A program made the translations under genes and the position numbers. Positions 3,793 to 10,921 of a stretch of DNA of 13,809 nucleotides are shown here, in pieces. This DNA is from Promethearchaeota archaeon (GTDB taxonomy: Archaea; Asgardarchaeota; Lokiarchaeia; Sigyniarchaeales; SOKP01). The notes beneath the pieces were generated by a model, which was not told where the DNA came from, did not search any database, and saw nothing but the letters and a program-made list of their open reading frames with translations. How positions within the stretch are numbered: the first letter of the stretch is position 1; the number at the start of each line of letters is the position of its first letter. Where the stretch lies: positions 1 through 13,809 of the forward strand of contig JBHLNT010000111.1 of assembly GCA_048941265.1 (NCBI GenBank), given 5' to 3'.

Positions 3793-3850
3793 ATATTTGA
3801 ATGAACAAATGATATTAATAGAAATCATACTAAAAAAGTAATTGATTTGT

Positions 3851-4174
3851 ATGACTATAGAAGAATTAATAGATAATTTAGCAGTTCAGGTTGAGGGAGA
3901 AAATGCAAAAAAAGAAATAACGATTTTCACCCTTAGCACCTGTATGTGGTGCAAAAAATGTAAGGCATGGTTGAACGGTCGCAATATAAAATACCGCTAT
4001 GTAGATATGGATAGAATTCAAATGTCTCAAAAATCTGAAATATTAGATTACTTGAGAAATAATTATCAAAACCGCATTTCATATCCGTTCATGGTATGCG
4101 ATAAAAAAGATATTGTAGTGGGATATGATCCAAATAAATATGAAGAATTAATGGCAGATGGAGGGACGATTTAA
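3851..4174 (+). CDS. Glutaredoxin family protein
   Basis: FTLSTCMWCKKCK active site, YRYVDMD, cis-Pro SYPFMV, VVGYD. ATG 3851 is preferred over TTG 3842. Stop overlaps the next start (TAATG). Confidence 0.88.
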   Translation: MTIEELIDNLAVQVEGENAKKEITIFTLSTCMWCKKCKAWLNGRNIKYRYVDMDRIQMSQKSEILDYLRNNYQNRISYPFMVCDKKDIVVGYDPNKYEELMADGGTI

Positions 4175-4545
4175 TGGACATGGAAACAAAAGAGGGAATG
4201 CTTCAATATTGTAAGCAAGTAGCTGATAAAAACGGCTGGATTTTAAATAAGGACCAAAACACATTAGATGACCTCCTAGACGGACTCGTAGATAATAAGA
4301 CGAATTTGGGATATCAGTCATGTCCTTGTCGTTTGGCAAGTGGTAAACGAGAGTTGGATAGGGATTTAATATGCCCATGTGATTATGCTCTAAAGGATGT
4401 CCCCGAGTTTGGGGCTTGTTATTGTAATTTATATATGCGACAAGATTACTATGAGAGTATTGGAAAAGAATACGTGATTGTACCAGAGAGACGTTCTACT
4501 GAAAAGGAAAAAGCAGTTTTAAAATATATTAATGAACATACGTAA
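4174..4545 (+). CDS. Ferredoxin:thioredoxin reductase catalytic subunit (FTR-like, 4Fe-4S)
   Basis: Diagnostic CPC...CPC...CxC pattern (SCPCRLASG, ICPCDY, GACYCNLY) and a C-terminal VPERR. GGAGGG lies upstream. Confidence 0.93.
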   Translation: MDMETKEGMLQYCKQVADKNGWILNKDQNTLDDLLDGLVDNKTNLGYQSCPCRLASGKRELDRDLICPCDYALKDVPEFGACYCNLYMRQDYYESIGKEYVIVPERRSTEKEKAVLKYINEHT

Positions 4546-4910: not shown

Positions 4911-5903
4911 ATGGGAGATTATTTAGAATATCCAAAGGATAGAAAAAAATATCCAACTGATGAGGTTGATCCTGACCATTTTTATAGCGATGATGAAGTA
5001 CGAGAAATGATAAAAAATTATGATGATTTAAAATTTGAACAAGATGATTATTTCAAACTTTATAATTGTGTTCATTGTGGTTTATGTGAAACAGAGTTAG
5101 AACGGATTCAACTGAAAGAAAAATTTCTTTCGCAAGGATTAACACTTGAAGGGCTTTTAGAAATGCGGGAGTGTTTTCAAAAATATAGAACACCTTATCC
5201 TACAAATAAGATGAGAATGAAAATACCTCAAACTATTTCTGAAAAATCTGATACACTTTATTTTATGGGGTGTTTATCTACCATCAGAATTCCCCATTAT
5301 ACCGAGCATTCTCTCCAGTATCTCTTAAAACAAGGGATTGATTTTACCATCTTAGACACTGAAATTTGCTGCGGATGGCCTTGGTTTGCAAGTGGTTCAA
5401 TGGAAGAATTTAAAATTTGCAAAAAAGAGAATATTGAGATCTTTAAAAACTATAAAAAAGTGATCTGCCTCTGTCCTGCTTGTTATTTTCTTTTCAATAA
5501 ATATTATAAACCAGAAATGAATACGGATATCAAATTTGAGTATATTATAGATTATCTAAAACCTTCAGAGTCAAAAAAATCTGGTATTGTTGAACTTCAG
5601 CATCTTTGTCAACTAATAAATCGCGGAAGAGAGGATGTTTCTGAGTCTGTAGATAATATTTTAAAAGATAGTGGGTATGAAGTAGCAGATGTTCCACATT
5701 GGTGTTGCGGAGGCGGTTTGGGTTATATGCATCGAACAGATATTATTGAAGCCGTTGCTAGAAAGCGAATGGAAGATTTTGACAGAAATTATGTGGATTT
5801 TGCTACAACGTATTGCCCAAGCTGCTGGTGGATATTGCGTAGATTTAGTAAACAATGTAAAATTCATCCCAAAGCAAAAGATATATTTGAATTGCTTCTA
5901 TGA
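4911..5903 (+). CDS. CCG-domain Fe-S protein (HdrB/HdrD/GlpC superfamily), paralog A
   Basis: CVHCGLC, then two complete CCG domains (MGC..ICCGWP..CPAC; HLC..WCCGGG..CPSC). SD-like AAGGTG at 4898-4903. Confidence 0.88.
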   Translation: MGDYLEYPKDRKKYPTDEVDPDHFYSDDEVREMIKNYDDLKFEQDDYFKLYNCVHCGLCETELERIQLKEKFLSQGLTLEGLLEMRECFQKYRTPYPTNKMRMKIPQTISEKSDTLYFMGCLSTIRIPHYTEHSLQYLLKQGIDFTILDTEICCGWPWFASGSMEEFKICKKENIEIFKNYKKVICLCPACYFLFNKYYKPEMNTDIKFEYIIDYLKPSESKKSGIVELQHLCQLINRGREDVSESVDNILKDSGYEVADVPHWCCGGGLGYMHRTDIIEAVARKRMEDFDRNYVDFATTYCPSCWWILRRFSKQCKIHPKAKDIFELLL

Positions 5904-6904
5904 ATGATTCAAAATCTGAAGATTTTTATTGTCCTTGCCGGGAAGCTGACCCAGATCATTTTATTACAAATGAAGAAGTCAAACGGCTTATTGAAAGTAA
6001 TTATATATTTAAGCAGGATGATTATTTAAAAGTTTACAATTGCGTCCATTGCAATGATTGTGGTACTTCAGAGGATAGATTTCTTTTAAAAGAGAGATTT
6101 TTGAAAGATGGCGGAAAAATTAAAGGTTTAAAAGATACTATTAATGCGTTAGAATCATATGGTACACCTTTTACAAAAAATAAGAATCGGATTAAAATCC
6201 CTAAAGGCATTCCTAAAGAATCTGAAACTTTACTATATCTTGGTTGTTTTACTACTGTGAAAACTCCTGTATATGCTGAGAATCTCATAAGATATTTATT
6301 AAAAAAAAAAATAGATTTTACTCTATTAAACGAAGAAATATGCTGTGGGTATCCAATTTTATGTAATGGAGCAACGGACACGTATAATTTGTTAGTTAAA
6401 AAGAATAAAACATTATTAAAAGAAAAAGGATATAAAAAAATAATTACTGCCTGTCCTAGTTGCTATATGGTTTTTAAAAAAGAGTATAGCACTATGGGTC
6501 TTGAAATTAAATATTTCACAGAATTTCTTACTCCGGCAGAAAAGATGAAGTCAGGAAATCTAATTATACAACACGCCTGTCCTCTAAGAAACGGAGAAAT
6601 TCCCGGTATTGTTGAGAACTTAGAAAATTTATATCATAAAAGCGGGTACAATATTCTCTCAAGAATTCCAAAAACTTGTTGCGGTGGTGGTGTGGGTCAT
6701 CAATTAAGAACTGATATCATTGAAACAATAGCCTTGAAGAGAATGGATGATTTTAAAGAGAAGAGTGAATATCTTGAAAAAGATAGTAATAGAGACAGCT
6801 ATATCACTACTTATTGCCCTGATGCTTACTGGATCATAAAAGTTTATGGACGAAAAAAGAGGATTCCTTTTAAACTAAGAGATATGTGTGATTTACTGGG
6901 TTAA
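5900..6904 (+). CDS. CCG-domain Fe-S protein (HdrB/HdrD/GlpC superfamily), paralog B
   Basis: ATGA overlap with paralog A. CPC, CVHCNDC, LGC..ICCGYP..CPSC, HAC..TCCGGG..CPDA. Colinear with paralog A (DPDHF, QDDY.K.YNCVHC, IDFT.L..EICCG, RTDIIE). Confidence 0.88.
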   Translation: MNDSKSEDFYCPCREADPDHFITNEEVKRLIESNYIFKQDDYLKVYNCVHCNDCGTSEDRFLLKERFLKDGGKIKGLKDTINALESYGTPFTKNKNRIKIPKGIPKESETLLYLGCFTTVKTPVYAENLIRYLLKKKIDFTLLNEEICCGYPILCNGATDTYNLLVKKNKTLLKEKGYKKIITACPSCYMVFKKEYSTMGLEIKYFTEFLTPAEKMKSGNLIIQHACPLRNGEIPGIVENLENLYHKSGYNILSRIPKTCCGGGVGHQLRTDIIETIALKRMDDFKEKSEYLEKDSNRDSYITTYCPDAYWIIKVYGRKKRIPFKLRDMCDLLG

Positions 6905-6991: not shown

Positions 6992-7843
6992 TTATTTTAA
7001 AAGATCAGGGACTTCCCAAGGTAACTCCGCAATTAAAGCTCCAGCGTTCTTTAATGCGTTTATTTTACCTTGCGCAGTACCAAAATCTCCGGAAATAATT
7101 GCTCCAGCATGACCCATCCTTTTTCCTTCTGGTGCGCTTTTTCCGGCAATATAAGCAATAACGGGTTTATTTACATTATCTTTAATAAATTGAGCAGTTT
7201 TTTCCTCTTCATCACTTCCTATTTCTCCAATAAGAACAATTTTTTTAGTATTAGGGTCATTAGAAAAATATTCCACTGCTTCAATCATAGTTTTTCCTCT
7301 AATAGGATCTCCGCCAATACCAACATAGGCCGAAACTCCGATTCCTGCATTACCAATTGCTTTAGTGATTTCATAGGAAAGAGTACCACTTTTTGAAATC
7401 ACTGCTACACCGCCGTAATGACACATATCACTTGGCATTATTCCTAGCTTTATTTTATCTGGTATCATCATTCCTGGACAATTTGGACCAAGAAGATGTT
7501 TATTTCTTTCTTGGGCCATTTCAATTAGTCTCAACATATCAAAAACAGGAACGTTTTCTGTGATAATGCAAGTCATCATAATACCCGCCATTAAACTTTC
7601 CTTAACAGCACCAAATGTAAATTTAGCTGGCACGAACACAATGCTAGTGTCGCATTTTGTTTCTTGAACAGCTTCTTTAACAGTATTAAAAACAGGAACT
7701 TCATGAACTACTTGCCCTCCTTTTTTTGGCGTAACTCCCGCAACAATATTAGTTCCATAATCTAACATTATTTTAGTATGAAAAGCCCCTTGATTTCCAG
7801 TTATACCTTGAACAACTACTTTGGAAGTTTCACTAATATACAT
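6992..7843 (-). CDS. sucD: Succinyl-CoA synthetase subunit alpha
   Basis: VVVQGITG, GVTP, GPNCPG, SKSGTL, GIGGD, IGEIG and phospho-His motif RMGHAGA. ATG 7843 follows the SD GGTGG, so it is preferred over GTG 7852. Confidence 0.97.
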   Translation of the reverse strand: MYISETSKVVVQGITGNQGAFHTKIMLDYGTNIVAGVTPKKGGQVVHEVPVFNTVKEAVQETKCDTSIVFVPAKFTFGAVKESLMAGIMMTCIITENVPVFDMLRLIEMAQERNKHLLGPNCPGMMIPDKIKLGIMPSDMCHYGGVAVISKSGTLSYEITKAIGNAGIGVSAYVGIGGDPIRGKTMIEAVEYFSNDPNTKKIVLIGEIGSDEEEKTAQFIKDNVNKPVIAYIAGKSAPEGKRMGHAGAIISGDFGTAQGKINALKNAGALIAELPWEVPDLLK

Positions 7844-7844
7844 A

Positions 7845-8969
7845 TTATCCACCTAAGACCTCCTTTACTTTATTGACTGCTTCCATTACATCTTTGAATG
7901 CATTAATACCCTCATTTTTAAGTAATTCTATTCCTTCTTTTTCATTTGTGCCAGTTAATCGGATAACCATAGGTGGAGCATTAGTAAAGTCTTTTGAAGC
8001 TTGAATTATGGCCTCTGCAACAATATCACATCGCGTTATTCCTCCAAAAATATTAATTAAGACGCACTTAGGTCTCAACTTAAAAATTAACTCAAGTGCT
8101 CTATAAATCCGTTCTTTGTTGGCACCACCACCAACATCTAAAAAATTTGCGGGACTTAATCCTATCTGAGATAATACATCTAAAAGAGCCATAGTTAATC
8201 CTGCACCATTTGCTAAAATACCAATATCTCCATCTAATTCGACGAATGAAAAACCAGCATCTTTCGCTAATTTCTCTAAATCAGAGAGTTTTTTTTCTTC
8301 TAATTCTTGAATTAATGGTTGGCGAAATGCAGCATCATCATCTAAAATCATCTTCCCATCCACAGCGATTAAACCTGAGGGAGTCAAGACTAAGGGATTA
8401 ATCTCAACTAATTGGGCTTCTGTCTTAATTGTGATTTCCCATAACTTTAAAAAAATTTCTATAACAGAATTTAATAACTGATTAGCAAATCCCAATTGTT
8501 CCGCAACTTTTTGAGCAAGTTCTTTAGTTAATCCCTTTTTAAATGAAAAGCTCTCTTTAATTATATTTTCGGGATGGGTTGCAGCGACTTCTTCGATATC
8601 AATCCCTCCCTCCTTGCTCGCTATTAAAAAAAATTGCCTACCAGAAGCATCCAAAGCAATCGAACAATAATATTCATGCAAAATTGTTGCTAATTCCTCA
8701 ATTAAAATAGCTTCTACTCTAAAACCTCCTATCTTTTTTTCAAAGAATTCTTTACATAAAGAGGTTGCCTCTTGAATATTTTGAGCAATTTTAATTAAAC
8801 CTGCTTTTTTTCTACTTCCAATAGCAATTTGGGACTTAATTATAGCAGGGAAGTTGAAATTCCTGACTTTTTCTTGAATATCTTCTTTGTTATTAATTAT
8901 CATATTTTTTGCAAGTGGAAGACCAAATTTGGCAAAAACTTCTTTGCTTTCATATTCGAGTAAGCGAAT
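7845..8969 (-). CDS. sucC: Succinyl-CoA synthetase subunit beta; probable ATT start at 8969 (374 aa)
   Basis: EGGIDIEE, EINPL, NGAGL, PANFLDVGGG, NIFGGITRCD, RLTGTN. The frame extends 22 codons upstream of ATG 8903 and encodes the conserved N-terminus (I/M)RLLEYESKEVFAKFGLP. Confidence 0.95.
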   Translation of the reverse strand: MRLLEYESKEVFAKFGLPLAKNMIINNKEDIQEKVRNFNFPAIIKSQIAIGSRKKAGLIKIAQNIQEATSLCKEFFEKKIGGFRVEAILIEELATILHEYYCSIALDASGRQFFLIASKEGGIDIEEVAATHPENIIKESFSFKKGLTKELAQKVAEQLGFANQLLNSVIEIFLKLWEITIKTEAQLVEINPLVLTPSGLIAVDGKMILDDDAAFRQPLIQELEEKKLSDLEKLAKDAGFSFVELDGDIGILANGAGLTMALLDVLSQIGLSPANFLDVGGGANKERIYRALELIFKLRPKCVLINIFGGITRCDIVAEAIIQASKDFTNAPPMVIRLTGTNEKEGIELLKNEGINAFKDVMEAVNKVKEVLGG

Positions 8970-8976
8970 TTATTAG

Positions 8977-8983
8977 CCACCTT
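8977..8983 (-). promoter_or_regulatory. Shine-Dalgarno site for sucC
   Basis: AAGGTGG on the - strand, 7 nt upstream of ATT 8969. Confidence 0.7.
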
Positions 8984-9191
8984 GATTCGGAATTAAATAT
9001 AAAATTTCTATGTTTCTTAATAAACCTTATTCTAATAATCTATAATTTATCCATTCCTATAAAGGCGTATTTATATTTCATTAACAAAGCCTTTTTAATC
9101 CCGTCTATCCCAACTTATATAAAAAGAACTTAAAACAAAAATAGAATGATATGTGTCAAAAAAACAAATATAGTTATATTAAATTTAAAAT

Positions 9192-9197
9192 AGGAGG
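9192..9197 (+). promoter_or_regulatory. Shine-Dalgarno site for korA
   Basis: AGGAGG 8 nt upstream of TTG 9206. Confidence 0.75.
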
Positions 9198-9205
9198 ATT
9201 AGAAT

Positions 9206-10921
9206 TTGAATAATGATTTTTCTATAGTTCTTTGTGGAGCCGCTGGTCAAGGTATTCAAACAGTTGAAAGTTTACTTACTAAAACATTAAAAAGCTCTGG
9301 TTTTCATGTGTTCGCCACGAGGGAATATATGTCAAGAGTTCGAGGAGGGGTCAATTCCACTTCCATCCGTGTCTCGTCCAGACAAGTACGGGCTTTTATA
9401 GAACGAGTCGATATATTAATTCCCCTTAGTGAAGAGGCAATTCCCCATTTAAGAAGAAGAATTTTTCCTCAAACAATGATTTTAGGTGAAAGCAAATTCA
9501 TTCAAACGGGGAGCGACATTGAATGTGAGAAAGTGGAAATCGCATTTGAAGAAATTGCTATAGGTCTAGGTAGAAAAATTTTTGCTAATATTATTTCTTT
9601 AGGTGTTATTTGTGGAATTTTAAATGCGGATAGAAAAATCCTTCACGCTGCTCTTAACAAAAACTTTAAAAGTAAAGGACAAGTTATTGTCGATGAAAAT
9701 ATTAAAGCAGCCGATAAGGGATATGAAATTGCCGGAGAATTAATAACAAATAATAAATTAAAAAGAGAATTTTTAGTGAAAAGGAATTTTGATGTAGTAA
9801 ATGATTATATCATTGATGGAAGAGAAGCAGTGGCTCTAGGAGCCATAGCAGGAGGAGCTAATTATGTCACATTTTATCCCATGGCACCCTCTACAGGGGT
9901 AGGGACCTTTCTTGCCCAGCATGGTTTAGATTTTTCCATCATAGTTGATCAGTCGGAGGATGAGATCAGTGTCATAAATAAAGCATTAGGAGCTTCTTAT
10001 ACCGGAGCACGTTCATTTGTGTCCACATCAGGCGGAGGTTTTTCTTTGATGTGCGAGGGTGTAAGTTTAGCTGGAATGATGGAATTACCAATAGTAATAC
10101 TTGTTGGTCAAAGACCTGGTCCGGCAACAGGAATGCCTACTCGTACTTCACAGGAGGACCTCGAACTGGTTCTTTATGCGGGAGCAGGTTATTTCCCTAG
10201 AATTATTTTTGCTCCAGGAACAATTGAAGATGCCTTTAAACTTACTCAAAATGCTTTTAATTTAACCCAGAAATATCAGGTACCAGTTTTTATTTTATCT
10301 GACCAATATCTCATTGATTCGTATTATAATATACCATCTTTAGATCATGAGACTTTAGAAATTAAAAAATATTTTGTACAAAACGATGAGTATTATGAAC
10401 GATATAGATTCACCGAAAACGGTATCTCTCCTTTCAGTGTTCCGGGATACGGAACTGGATTAGTAGATGCGGATAGTCATACTCATACGGAAGAGGGAGA
10501 TATTACAGAAGACCCTATCATAAGGAATAAAACAGTCGAAAAAAGGTTTAAAAAACTCGATCTTATAAAAAAAGTAGTGATACCCCCTGAACTTATTGGG
10601 AATAATGATTATGAATTTTTAATTATTGGTTGGGGAAGTAATTATTATTTAATTAAAGAAGCTTTAGAAAATTTAAACCAAGATAATGTAGCATTTTTAC
10701 ATTTTAAACAAGTATATCCTTTGCATTCAAGTGTTAATGATTATGTTAGAAAAGCAAAAAAGATTATAGCAATCGAAAATAATCCAACGGGGCAATTTGG
10801 GAAGTTAGTAGAATTAGAAACTCACATAAAAATTGATAGATTTATATTAAAATATAGTGGTTATGTATTCTCTGTGGAAGAATTGTACCAAAAATTAAAA
10901 AAAATTATCGTGGGTGATTAA
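9206..10921 (+). CDS. korA: 2-oxoacid:ferredoxin oxidoreductase subunit alpha (gamma-alpha fusion), likely 2-oxoglutarate-specific by context
   Basis: GAAGQGI, SRVRGG, YPMAP (YPITP-equivalent), QSEDE, TSGGGFSLM, QRPGPATGMPT, IGWGS, ENN..GQ. TTG start. Confidence 0.93.
   Translation: MNNDFSIVLCGAAGQGIQTVESLLTKTLKSSGFHVFATREYMSRVRGGVNSTSIRVSSRQVRAFIERVDILIPLSEEAIPHLRRRIFPQTMILGESKFIQTGSDIECEKVEIAFEEIAIGLGRKIFANIISLGVICGILNADRKILHAALNKNFKSKGQVIVDENIKAADKGYEIAGELITNNKLKREFLVKRNFDVVNDYIIDGREAVALGAIAGGANYVTFYPMAPSTGVGTFLAQHGLDFSIIVDQSEDEISVINKALGASYTGARSFVSTSGGGFSLMCEGVSLAGMMELPIVILVGQRPGPATGMPTRTSQEDLELVLYAGAGYFPRIIFAPGTIEDAFKLTQNAFNLTQKYQVPVFILSDQYLIDSYYNIPSLDHETLEIKKYFVQNDEYYERYRFTENGISPFSVPGYGTGLVDADSHTHTEEGDITEDPIIRNKTVEKRFKKLDLIKKVVIPPELIGNNDYEFLIIGWGSNYYLIKEALENLNQDNVAFLHFKQVYPLHSSVNDYVRKAKKIIAIENNPTGQFGKLVELETHIKIDRFILKYSGYVFSVEELYQKLKKIIVGD

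Follow-up and report, generated by a model that had tools for sequence, protein, structure and literature searches.

Where does translation of sucC begin in an archaeal genome whose sucC reading frame carries no ATG, GTG or TTG at the position of the first methionine? The question is raised by the minus strand of a 13,809-nucleotide stretch of DNA from a Lokiarchaeia-type Promethearchaeota archaeon (the window; contig C78 in an assembly of 5.0 Mb and 361 contigs that is 91% complete and has 30.5% G+C). A first-pass annotation had proposed native initiation at an ATT and likened it to the rare, regulatory AUU starts of bacteria.

Read on the minus strand, the motif AAGGTGG (8983–8977) is followed by C (8976), TAA (8975–8973), TAA (8972–8970) and ATT (8969–8967), and then by the triplets CGC TTA CTC GAA TAT GAA AGC AAA (Table 1). 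The spacing from the last G of the motif to the A of the ATT is 7 bases, and the frame translates from this region as two stops followed by IRLLEYESKEVFAKFGLPLAKNM. Between the stops and 8903 there is no in-frame ATG, GTG or TTG; the first such codon lies 22 codons past the ATT, and the longest canonical ORF in the frame (7845..8903, ATG) encodes 352 aa. The coordinates, the 7-nt spacing, the two upstream stops and the lack of an earlier canonical codon had all been given correctly in the first-pass annotation, as judged from the minus-strand reading and the ORF list.

Translated from the ATT, the 374-residue product matched NF001913 (ADP-forming succinate-CoA ligase subunit beta) with 382.5 bits, above the cut-off of 370, and its residues 2–371 aligned to positions 2–384 of the 388 in the profile. 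It also aligned to the solved SucC chains 3ufx_B (7.7e-77; residues 2–367 on 2–369) and 1jkj_B (residues 2–367 on 2–380). Because residue 2 falls on residue 2 of both chains, the ATT lies exactly at Met1, as had been claimed from the SucC consensus. The protein is thus an ADP-forming beta subunit by every test applied: it exceeds the equivalog cut-off at full length, is collinear from residue 2 and has the alpha-subunit gene, sucD, next to it.

Table 1. Features around the sucC start in the window, followed by Pfam domains that begin ahead of the first canonical codon in near-cognate candidates of the same genome
Feature	Position	Strand	Basis or remark
Shine-Dalgarno (SD) motif AAGGTGG	8977..8983	-	7 bases 5' of ATT
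Two in-frame TAA stops, abutting the start	8970..8975	-	bar any upstream start in frame
sucC ATT, predicted initiation codon, Met1 position	8967..8969	-	anatomy; profile and structure alignment; orthologues
sucC codons 2-22, conserved N-terminus cut by a canonical-start call	8904..8966	-	conservation in 42 loci; SucC structure alignment
Rival start: first canonical in-frame codon, ATG, residue 23	8901..8903	-	ORF listing; not conserved
sucC coding sequence, 374 codons and stop	7845..8969	-	translation; profile; solved SucC chains
sucD, directly downstream of sucC	6992..7854	-	NF004230, 381.5 bits, cut-off 336
Ras	domain from residue 8		first canonical codon 22
Ras (second candidate)	domain from residue 11		first canonical codon 111
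TFB zinc ribbon	domain from residue 25		first canonical codon 79
DEAD	domain from residue 46		first canonical codon 146
Polyprenyl synthetase	domain from residue 38		first canonical codon 121
SGL	domain from residue 14		first canonical codon 30
Receiver domain	domain from residue 5		first canonical codon 12
Roadblock	domain from residue 24		first canonical codon 66
Abhydrolase	domain from residue 21		first canonical codon 46
ATP-synt_D	domain from residue 12		first canonical codon 17
Hexapeptide repeat	domain from residue 15		first canonical codon 37
AC39	domain from residue 18		first canonical codon 23
Fer4	domain from residue 33		first canonical codon 52

The sucD gene has its own AGGTGG (7854–7849), with an ATG (7843–7841) 5 bases later; the GTG at 7852–7850, its start according to the ORF listing, sits within that SD. 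AGGTGG is therefore common to sucC and sucD (7841–7854, minus strand), yet it precedes ATT in the one and a canonical ATG in the other, which places the two subunits of one enzyme in different start-codon classes. Divergently upstream of sucC lie the alpha and beta genes of a 2-oxoacid:ferredoxin oxidoreductase (korAB) and sdhA. On the plus strand of the window (3842–4545 and 4911–6904), a glutaredoxin-like gene and a sequence that matches the FtrB double-selenoprotein family only weakly (48 bits; cut-off 160) are followed by two HdrB/TfrB-like CCG-domain genes, this group standing beside sucCD, korAB and sdhA. A possible TATA-like run ∼30 bases 5' of the ATT, which would have implied a nearly leaderless mRNA, was discarded as it is not kept in an 87%-identical orthologue.

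As the window is a single metagenome-assembled contig, the ATT might reflect a sequencing or assembly error, for which the first-pass annotation had singled out position 8967, or a decaying gene. Assembled contigs of three runs from two studies cover 8967–8969 and have no other letter there. The contig of run X1 (8863–9400), which may be from the source sample, shows 0 differences from the window, that of run X2 (8802–9187) 1 difference, at 8862, and that of run X3 (8938–9360), from a different study, again 0; in a fourth run (X4) the contig begins at 8967. All of these are assembled contigs, which lose rare variants, and no run listed for the stretch is recorded as RNA. The agreement between two studies, the presence of ATT, ATA or ATC (collectively ATH) at the same codon in 37 loci (see below), the intact frame and a product above the curated cut-off leave error or decay a negligible probability. 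Thus, as far as assembled DNA can tell, the ATT is genuine.

Conservation of the start codon in sucC orthologues

Residue 1 was compared in two sets of orthologues. The near set consisted of 11 full sucC orthologues, including the window's own, from the 40 nearest genomes (a 35%-identical paralogue was left out); ATT was found in 7, TTG in 2, GTG in 1 and ATG in 1. The wide set comprised 42 species-level loci at 58–87% identity, 36 of them titled with an Asgard name and 6 merely "archaeon", and here the codon was ATT in 22, ATA in 14, ATC in 1, GTA in 1 and ATG in 4. ATH therefore occupied residue 1 in 37/42 Asgard-type loci versus 0/35 other relatives: all 35 readable non-Asgard loci (Chloroflexota, Thermoplasmatota and others; 3 further loci were cut) had ATG, GTG or TTG. 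The two closest named loci (87% and 86% identity) belong to Promethearchaeia/Promethearchaeota MAGs, and Heimdall-, Hod-, Hermod- and Thorarchaeota occur in the titles of more distant relatives.

These counts need to be read together with the alternatives available to each locus. In 20 of the 38 loci with a non-canonical residue-1 codon, no canonical codon occurs from the upstream stop through codon 10; a TTG occupies codon 3 in 13 loci, and 5 carry a canonical codon further upstream in the frame, often a GTG within the SD, so orthologues of both these groups could start elsewhere. One locus of a Promethearchaeia MAG (L051) has GTA, which differs from ATG at two bases. This GTA follows a normal GGAGG SD, with no canonical codon before codon 23, and is either an error or a still weaker start.

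Coding-type conservation begins at the ATT codon. Relative to the window, codons 2–22 of the 42 loci were identical in 331 cases, synonymous in 298 and non-synonymous in 253, while the 21 in-frame triplets upstream of the ATT were identical in 51, synonymous in 33 and non-synonymous in 798. R2, L4, E5, E7, K9, F12 and P18 of SucC were invariant (42/42). It follows from this conservation that the region dropped by a start at the ATG of 8903 is translated and under selection. A start at that ATG, giving a protein shorter by 22 residues, has in its favour that it is the first canonical codon and that truncated forms are common in gene calls of relatives. However, it would delete residues that align to SucC 2–22 and are under purifying selection, it is not preceded by an SD, and Met23 is not conserved: ATG occurs at codon 23 in only 5/42 loci, and many have no canonical codon at all within 25 codons. 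This alternative is accordingly very improbable. The claim that the AUU is native to sucC holds up; the codon class is conserved in the orthologues, and no codon other than the ATT is a plausible start of the gene.

By eye, an SD-like motif 6–8 bases before residue 1 was recognizable in most of the 11 orthologues and in most Asgard-type loci; it was weak or unclear in L010 and L060. That ATH persists across 58–87% protein identity, despite the fact that a single base change gives ATG, could mean that the weak start is kept to throttle or regulate succinyl-CoA synthetase, after the manner of infC and pcnB of E. coli; the use of ATG behind the same SD by sucD, in the same operon, would fit as well. 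On the other hand, relatives with ATG, TTG or GTG at residue 1 exist, which means that the weak codon is not obligatory, and within the family the sucC codon drifts among ATT, ATA, ATC, TTG and ATG. The SD alone is conserved upstream of sucC, with no sucC-specific structure or upstream ORF kept. The same codons also stand at the start of dozens of unrelated genes (see below).

Near-cognate starts across the genome and between families

The host genome was scanned for start codons behind eight SD pentamers at a spacing of 5–10 bases, with a stop no more than 12 codons upstream, an ORF of at least 100 codons and no canonical codon within 15 codons downstream. ATG was found 151 times, TTG 47, ATT 35, ATA 20, GTG 13 and ATC 11 times; the composition-matched codons AAT, AAA, TTT, TTA and TAT were found 11, 10, 9, 7 and 4 times, respectively. 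When the motif was restricted to AGGTG followed by exactly 7 bases, each of the 50 codons was either AUG or differed from it at one base (ATA 13, ATT 12, ATG 12, TTG 7, CTG 3, ACG 1, GTG 1 and ATC 1). Control spacings of 1–3 and 12–14 bases, as well as two control motifs, were flat and did not give such a pattern. Counts of AGGTG-N7-codon made without ORF context were drowned by background, and such pattern counts were not used for other genomes.

With AGGTG at 6–8 bases, 50 of the codons obtained were canonical, 40 near-cognate and 4 of other kinds, the near-cognate ones being ATT (17), ATA (15), ATC (3), CTG (3) and ACG (2); because the filters, which demand a stop at most 20 codons upstream and bar canonical codons from the first 10 downstream, favour near-cognate cases, these shares are not genome-wide frequencies. 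Without preselection for an SD, candidates that had one of at least 6 bases numbered 77 for ATG, 24 for TTG, 4 for GTG, 29 for ATT, 21 for ATA and 6 for ATC, against 4 for AAT, 7 for TTA, 1 for TAT, 14 for AAA and 6 for TTT as control codons. Only 246 of 1911 confident ATG candidates (12.9%) had an SD of at least 5 bases, so SD-led genes are a minority and most genes are SD-less or leaderless; the weak start codons are concentrated among this SD-led minority. TTG was unusually frequent among SD-led starts (16 behind AGGTG, compared with 30 for ATG); in one sister-family genome the corresponding numbers were 0 and 15.

Scanning for an SD followed by ATT, as suggested along with the AUU claim, gave 17 ATT among the 40 near-cognate starts behind AGGTG, with Pfam support for 13 near-cognate genes. 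The Pfam check covered 40 candidates, namely the 39 near-cognate AGGTG cases besides sucC and one further ATC case. A match at E ≤1e-5 was obtained for 30 of them and none for 10; among the 30, the domain starts ahead of the first canonical codon in 13 (Table 1), and the match is uninformative for the other 17. The sucC ATT has the features of this class: no earlier canonical codon, an SD at a working distance, in the spacing class that also shows the genome-wide signal, and retention in orthologues. It is thus one of dozens of ATT, ATA, ATC, CTG and ACG starts behind strong SDs, in genes as unrelated as those for a helicase, TFB, GTPases, V-ATPase subunits and hydrolases, which speaks against a regulatory role specific to sucC and contradicts the earlier portrayal of the codon as a rare start of regulatory type.

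The distribution of the trait was examined with the same motif (AGGTG at 6–8 bases) in other genomes of the order. A same-genus genome (793 kb) gave 4 canonical, 7 near-cognate and 5 other codons; the 5 of 16 in neither class count against a clean replicate. Two sister-family genomes, both complete and of the same G+C as the host (31%), were represented by 800 kb each: the first gave 15 canonical (all ATG), 2 near-cognate and 4 other codons, and the second 8, 1 and 2. The ratio of near-cognate to canonical codons, 47/54 versus 3/23, differed with a Fisher p of 0.0013, which is indicative only as kin are not independent. With an SD of at least 6 bases, the first sister genome had 2 ATH codons versus 11 for the five control codons, that is, no excess, and the second, with 4 (three codons) versus 4 (five control codons), was ambiguous. 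There was thus no clear near-cognate excess in the two sister-family genomes.

The gene for V-ATPase subunit D gave a similar picture. Residue 1 in 20 loci of the window's family was ATT in 9, ATA in 4, ATC in 3, ACG in 1 and ATG in 3, with 8 of the 17 non-canonical loci being unambiguous, and in other families all 9 of 9 readable loci start canonically. The predicted start of sucC at the ATT is strongly supported by the anatomy of the site, its conservation, the genome-wide excess and the sister-family contrast. Near-cognate starts form a class that extends across the lineage, with sucC as an unexceptional case, and the class is more interesting than the single gene.

Initiation machinery and related systems

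The reading that best accounts for these observations is that sucC is translated from the AUU at 8969–8967 and that this codon reflects, locally, a start-codon selection relaxed throughout the window's archaeal family, rather than a gene-specific switch; we give it a probability of roughly 0.85. The SD AAGGUGG would pair with the 16S rRNA 3' end and position the AUU in the P site, where the usual initiator Met-tRNA (anticodon CAU) would pair with two of the three bases of the AUU. The mismatch at the third position would be accepted, and the protein is predicted to begin Met-Arg-Leu-Leu-Glu-Tyr, presumably with an N-terminal Met. The family would tolerate single-mismatch starts behind strong SDs genome-wide, with sucC as one of dozens. 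In an AT-rich genome, such relaxed selection may have yielded the ATT of sucC, probably with some loss of output.

The 3' end of 16S rRNA could be read in a genome of a sister family in the same order (...GGAUCACCUCCU); AGGUGG is complementary to it, with one G-U pair, in this sister-family, not host, sequence, and AGGUGG and AGGUGA are therefore good SDs. No 16S rRNA was found in the window's assembly or in two same-genus genomes, and the copy in a third same-genus genome ends before the 3' end. A motif search, which also matched many non-tRNA places, retrieved a candidate gene for the initiator tRNA, whose acceptor stem has A1:U72, whose anticodon stem has GGG:CCC and whose loop is CUCAUAA. 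The gene (contig C212, ∼20435–20620, minus strand) is interrupted by two introns, of which the first follows the anticodon loop and the other lies in the T-arm region. In the MAG, ARAGORN predicted 10–12 tRNAs, none of them for Met or Ile, and missed the initiator even in intron mode; an Rfam tRNA search gave at least 22 matches (150 of 405 candidates scored).

Alternatively, AUH codons could be full-strength starts owing to a changed initiator tRNA, for example one with a modified C34 as in mitochondria, or to changed initiation factors. This would fit a third-position effect, as 35 of the 40 non-canonical starts are ATH, and also the restriction of the trait to a lineage at equal G+C. The aIF1 of the window's subclade, moreover, has the lowest scores on the SUI1 profile (47–49 bits versus 55–70). 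However, starts at CUG, ACG, UUG and GUG are raised as well, a pattern more in keeping with general relaxation, and the tRNA gene looks ordinary (although modifications are invisible in DNA). We regard full-strength AUH starts as unlikely, albeit deserving some weight. Mitochondria initiate at AUA, AUU and AUC with a modified tRNA-Met and a changed code. The likeness lies in third-position variants of AUG serving as regular starts in AT-rich genomes; in contrast to mitochondria, no change of code is seen here, and within the same genes ATT, ATA and ATC encode Ile at internal positions as usual.

In E. coli, infC (encoding IF3) and pcnB have AUU start codons as rare exceptions policed by IF3. 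With profile TIGR00168, infC was found in 0/41 genomes of the order, including the window's, and in 10 of 14 controls, all 10 of them bacteria. The host being archaeal, the IF3-based logic of infC and pcnB does not transfer, and the bacterial frame in which the AUU had first been placed fails for an Asgard archaeon. Moreover, the product of sucC is a TCA-cycle enzyme and not a codon-discriminating factor, so it differs from infC in the very property on which autoregulation depends. The bacterial, gene-specific regulatory interpretation of the sucC ATT is thus not supported, and a regulatory weak start is improbable. What sucC shares with the bacterial cases, to which ebpA of Enterococcus faecalis can be added (from the accessible part of PMC4447247), is an AUU behind an SD at a homology-defined Met1 without a canonical alternative; what sets it apart is an archaeal host in which no IF3 gene was found and a codon class that is common in the genome.

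Archaeal start selection is described as relying on aIF1, aIF1A and aIF2 instead of IF3, and in the Sulfolobus system aIF1 was reported to favour discrimination against non-canonical starts (both from the available sections of PMC6237735), which makes aIF1 the obvious suspect for relaxed selection. A contribution of aIF1 to the tolerance is nonetheless conjectural. The factor was present in 35/41 genomes. In the window's genome (L310; contig C112, ∼9700–9912, minus strand), its stop-to-stop frame contains no canonical codon before codon 21, which falls inside the zinc knuckle CSLCGLPKDLCVC; the corresponding motif, CX2CGLPX3C(phi)C, occurs in 64% of 744 archaeal aIF1 sequences according to the same sections of PMC6237735. 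With its first canonical codon inside the knuckle, aIF1 must itself start at an upstream ATT or ATC, for which there is a candidate ∼9 bases after a conserved GTGA. A canonical start before the zinc knuckle was likewise missing in 16 of the 18 listed genomes of the window's family, and aIF1 starts with ATG, TTG or GTG in 8/10 sister-family genomes and in 2/2 genomes of a third family. A Leu in place of a conserved Cys (KKKLGSGG versus KKKCASGG) was rejected as a residue tracking the trait, because other members of the ATH-start family keep the Cys.

By analogy, the weak start of aIF1 could constitute a self-limiting feedback like that of infC or eIF1. It is conceivable, and we suggest it tentatively, that a whole family within the Lokiarchaeia is relaxed, with AUU, AUA and AUC (and some CUG and ACG) as regular starts on about a third of the strongly SD-led genes, and that the AUU or AUC start of aIF1 would provide feedback on permissiveness. 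If true, the closest relatives of eukaryotes would possess an archaeal equivalent both of eIF1 autoregulation and of the near-cognate initiation known from eukaryotes. Near-cognate initiation in eukaryotes, where eIF1 is autoregulated via a poor start context (as cited in the available sections of PMC6237735), is similar in that it employs single-mismatch starts and that the stringency factor (aIF1/eIF1) is itself encoded behind a poor start; it differs in that the start is placed here by an SD and not by scanning and Kozak context, and in that feedback in aIF1 is hypothetical. The question raised is how archaea with aIF1 and aIF2 but without IF3 set the stringency of start selection, and why sister families differ at equal G+C.

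The closest precedent comes from another Asgard class. An ATT start, termed "rare", was proposed for the tubulin gene atubA in a MAG of the Kariarchaeaceae (Heimdallarchaeia; PMC13394414). There, too, the deposited protein of an Asgard gene is too short, and an upstream ATT at a plausible RBS distance restores the conserved first β-strand; in contrast to the present analysis, the accessible text of that paper deals with a single case, without a genome-wide or comparative count. A literature search, with most subscription journals and supplements outside its reach, returned no genome-wide treatment, only this remark on atubA.

Annotated N-termini

Calling only ATG, GTG and TTG strips 22 conserved residues from SucC, and it had been predicted that gene callers would truncate the protein. 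This applies to relatives but not to the product of the window. A public protein collection holds the window's SucC as 374 residues beginning MRLLEYESK (P0003); some gene call therefore already uses the ATT. The truncated 352-residue SucC and a truncated V-ATPase subunit D gave no match in an exact look-up. The SucC of the closest relative, on the other hand, is deposited as a 351-residue truncation (P0004), and the conserved LEYESK start is absent from 22 of the best 120 public SucC homologues. Residue 1 is the start in 37 of these best 120 and residue 3 in 46, and 15 are longer.

In the window's family, many N-termini are cut or misplaced by ordinary gene finders, including those of small GTPases, TFB, a DEAD helicase, V-ATPase subunits and aIF1, and Asgard proteomes are heavily mined for eukaryote-like proteins. 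A protein of the window's genome from NCBI begins at an ATC (P0002). In a Ras-family GTPase (L167; contig C143, 40978–41502), the P-loop precedes any canonical start. Its NCBI-sourced protein starts at an ATC, codon 9, although an SD-spaced ATT at codon 1 looks better, and the Logan-sourced call, with Met22 as its first residue, lacks the P-loop.
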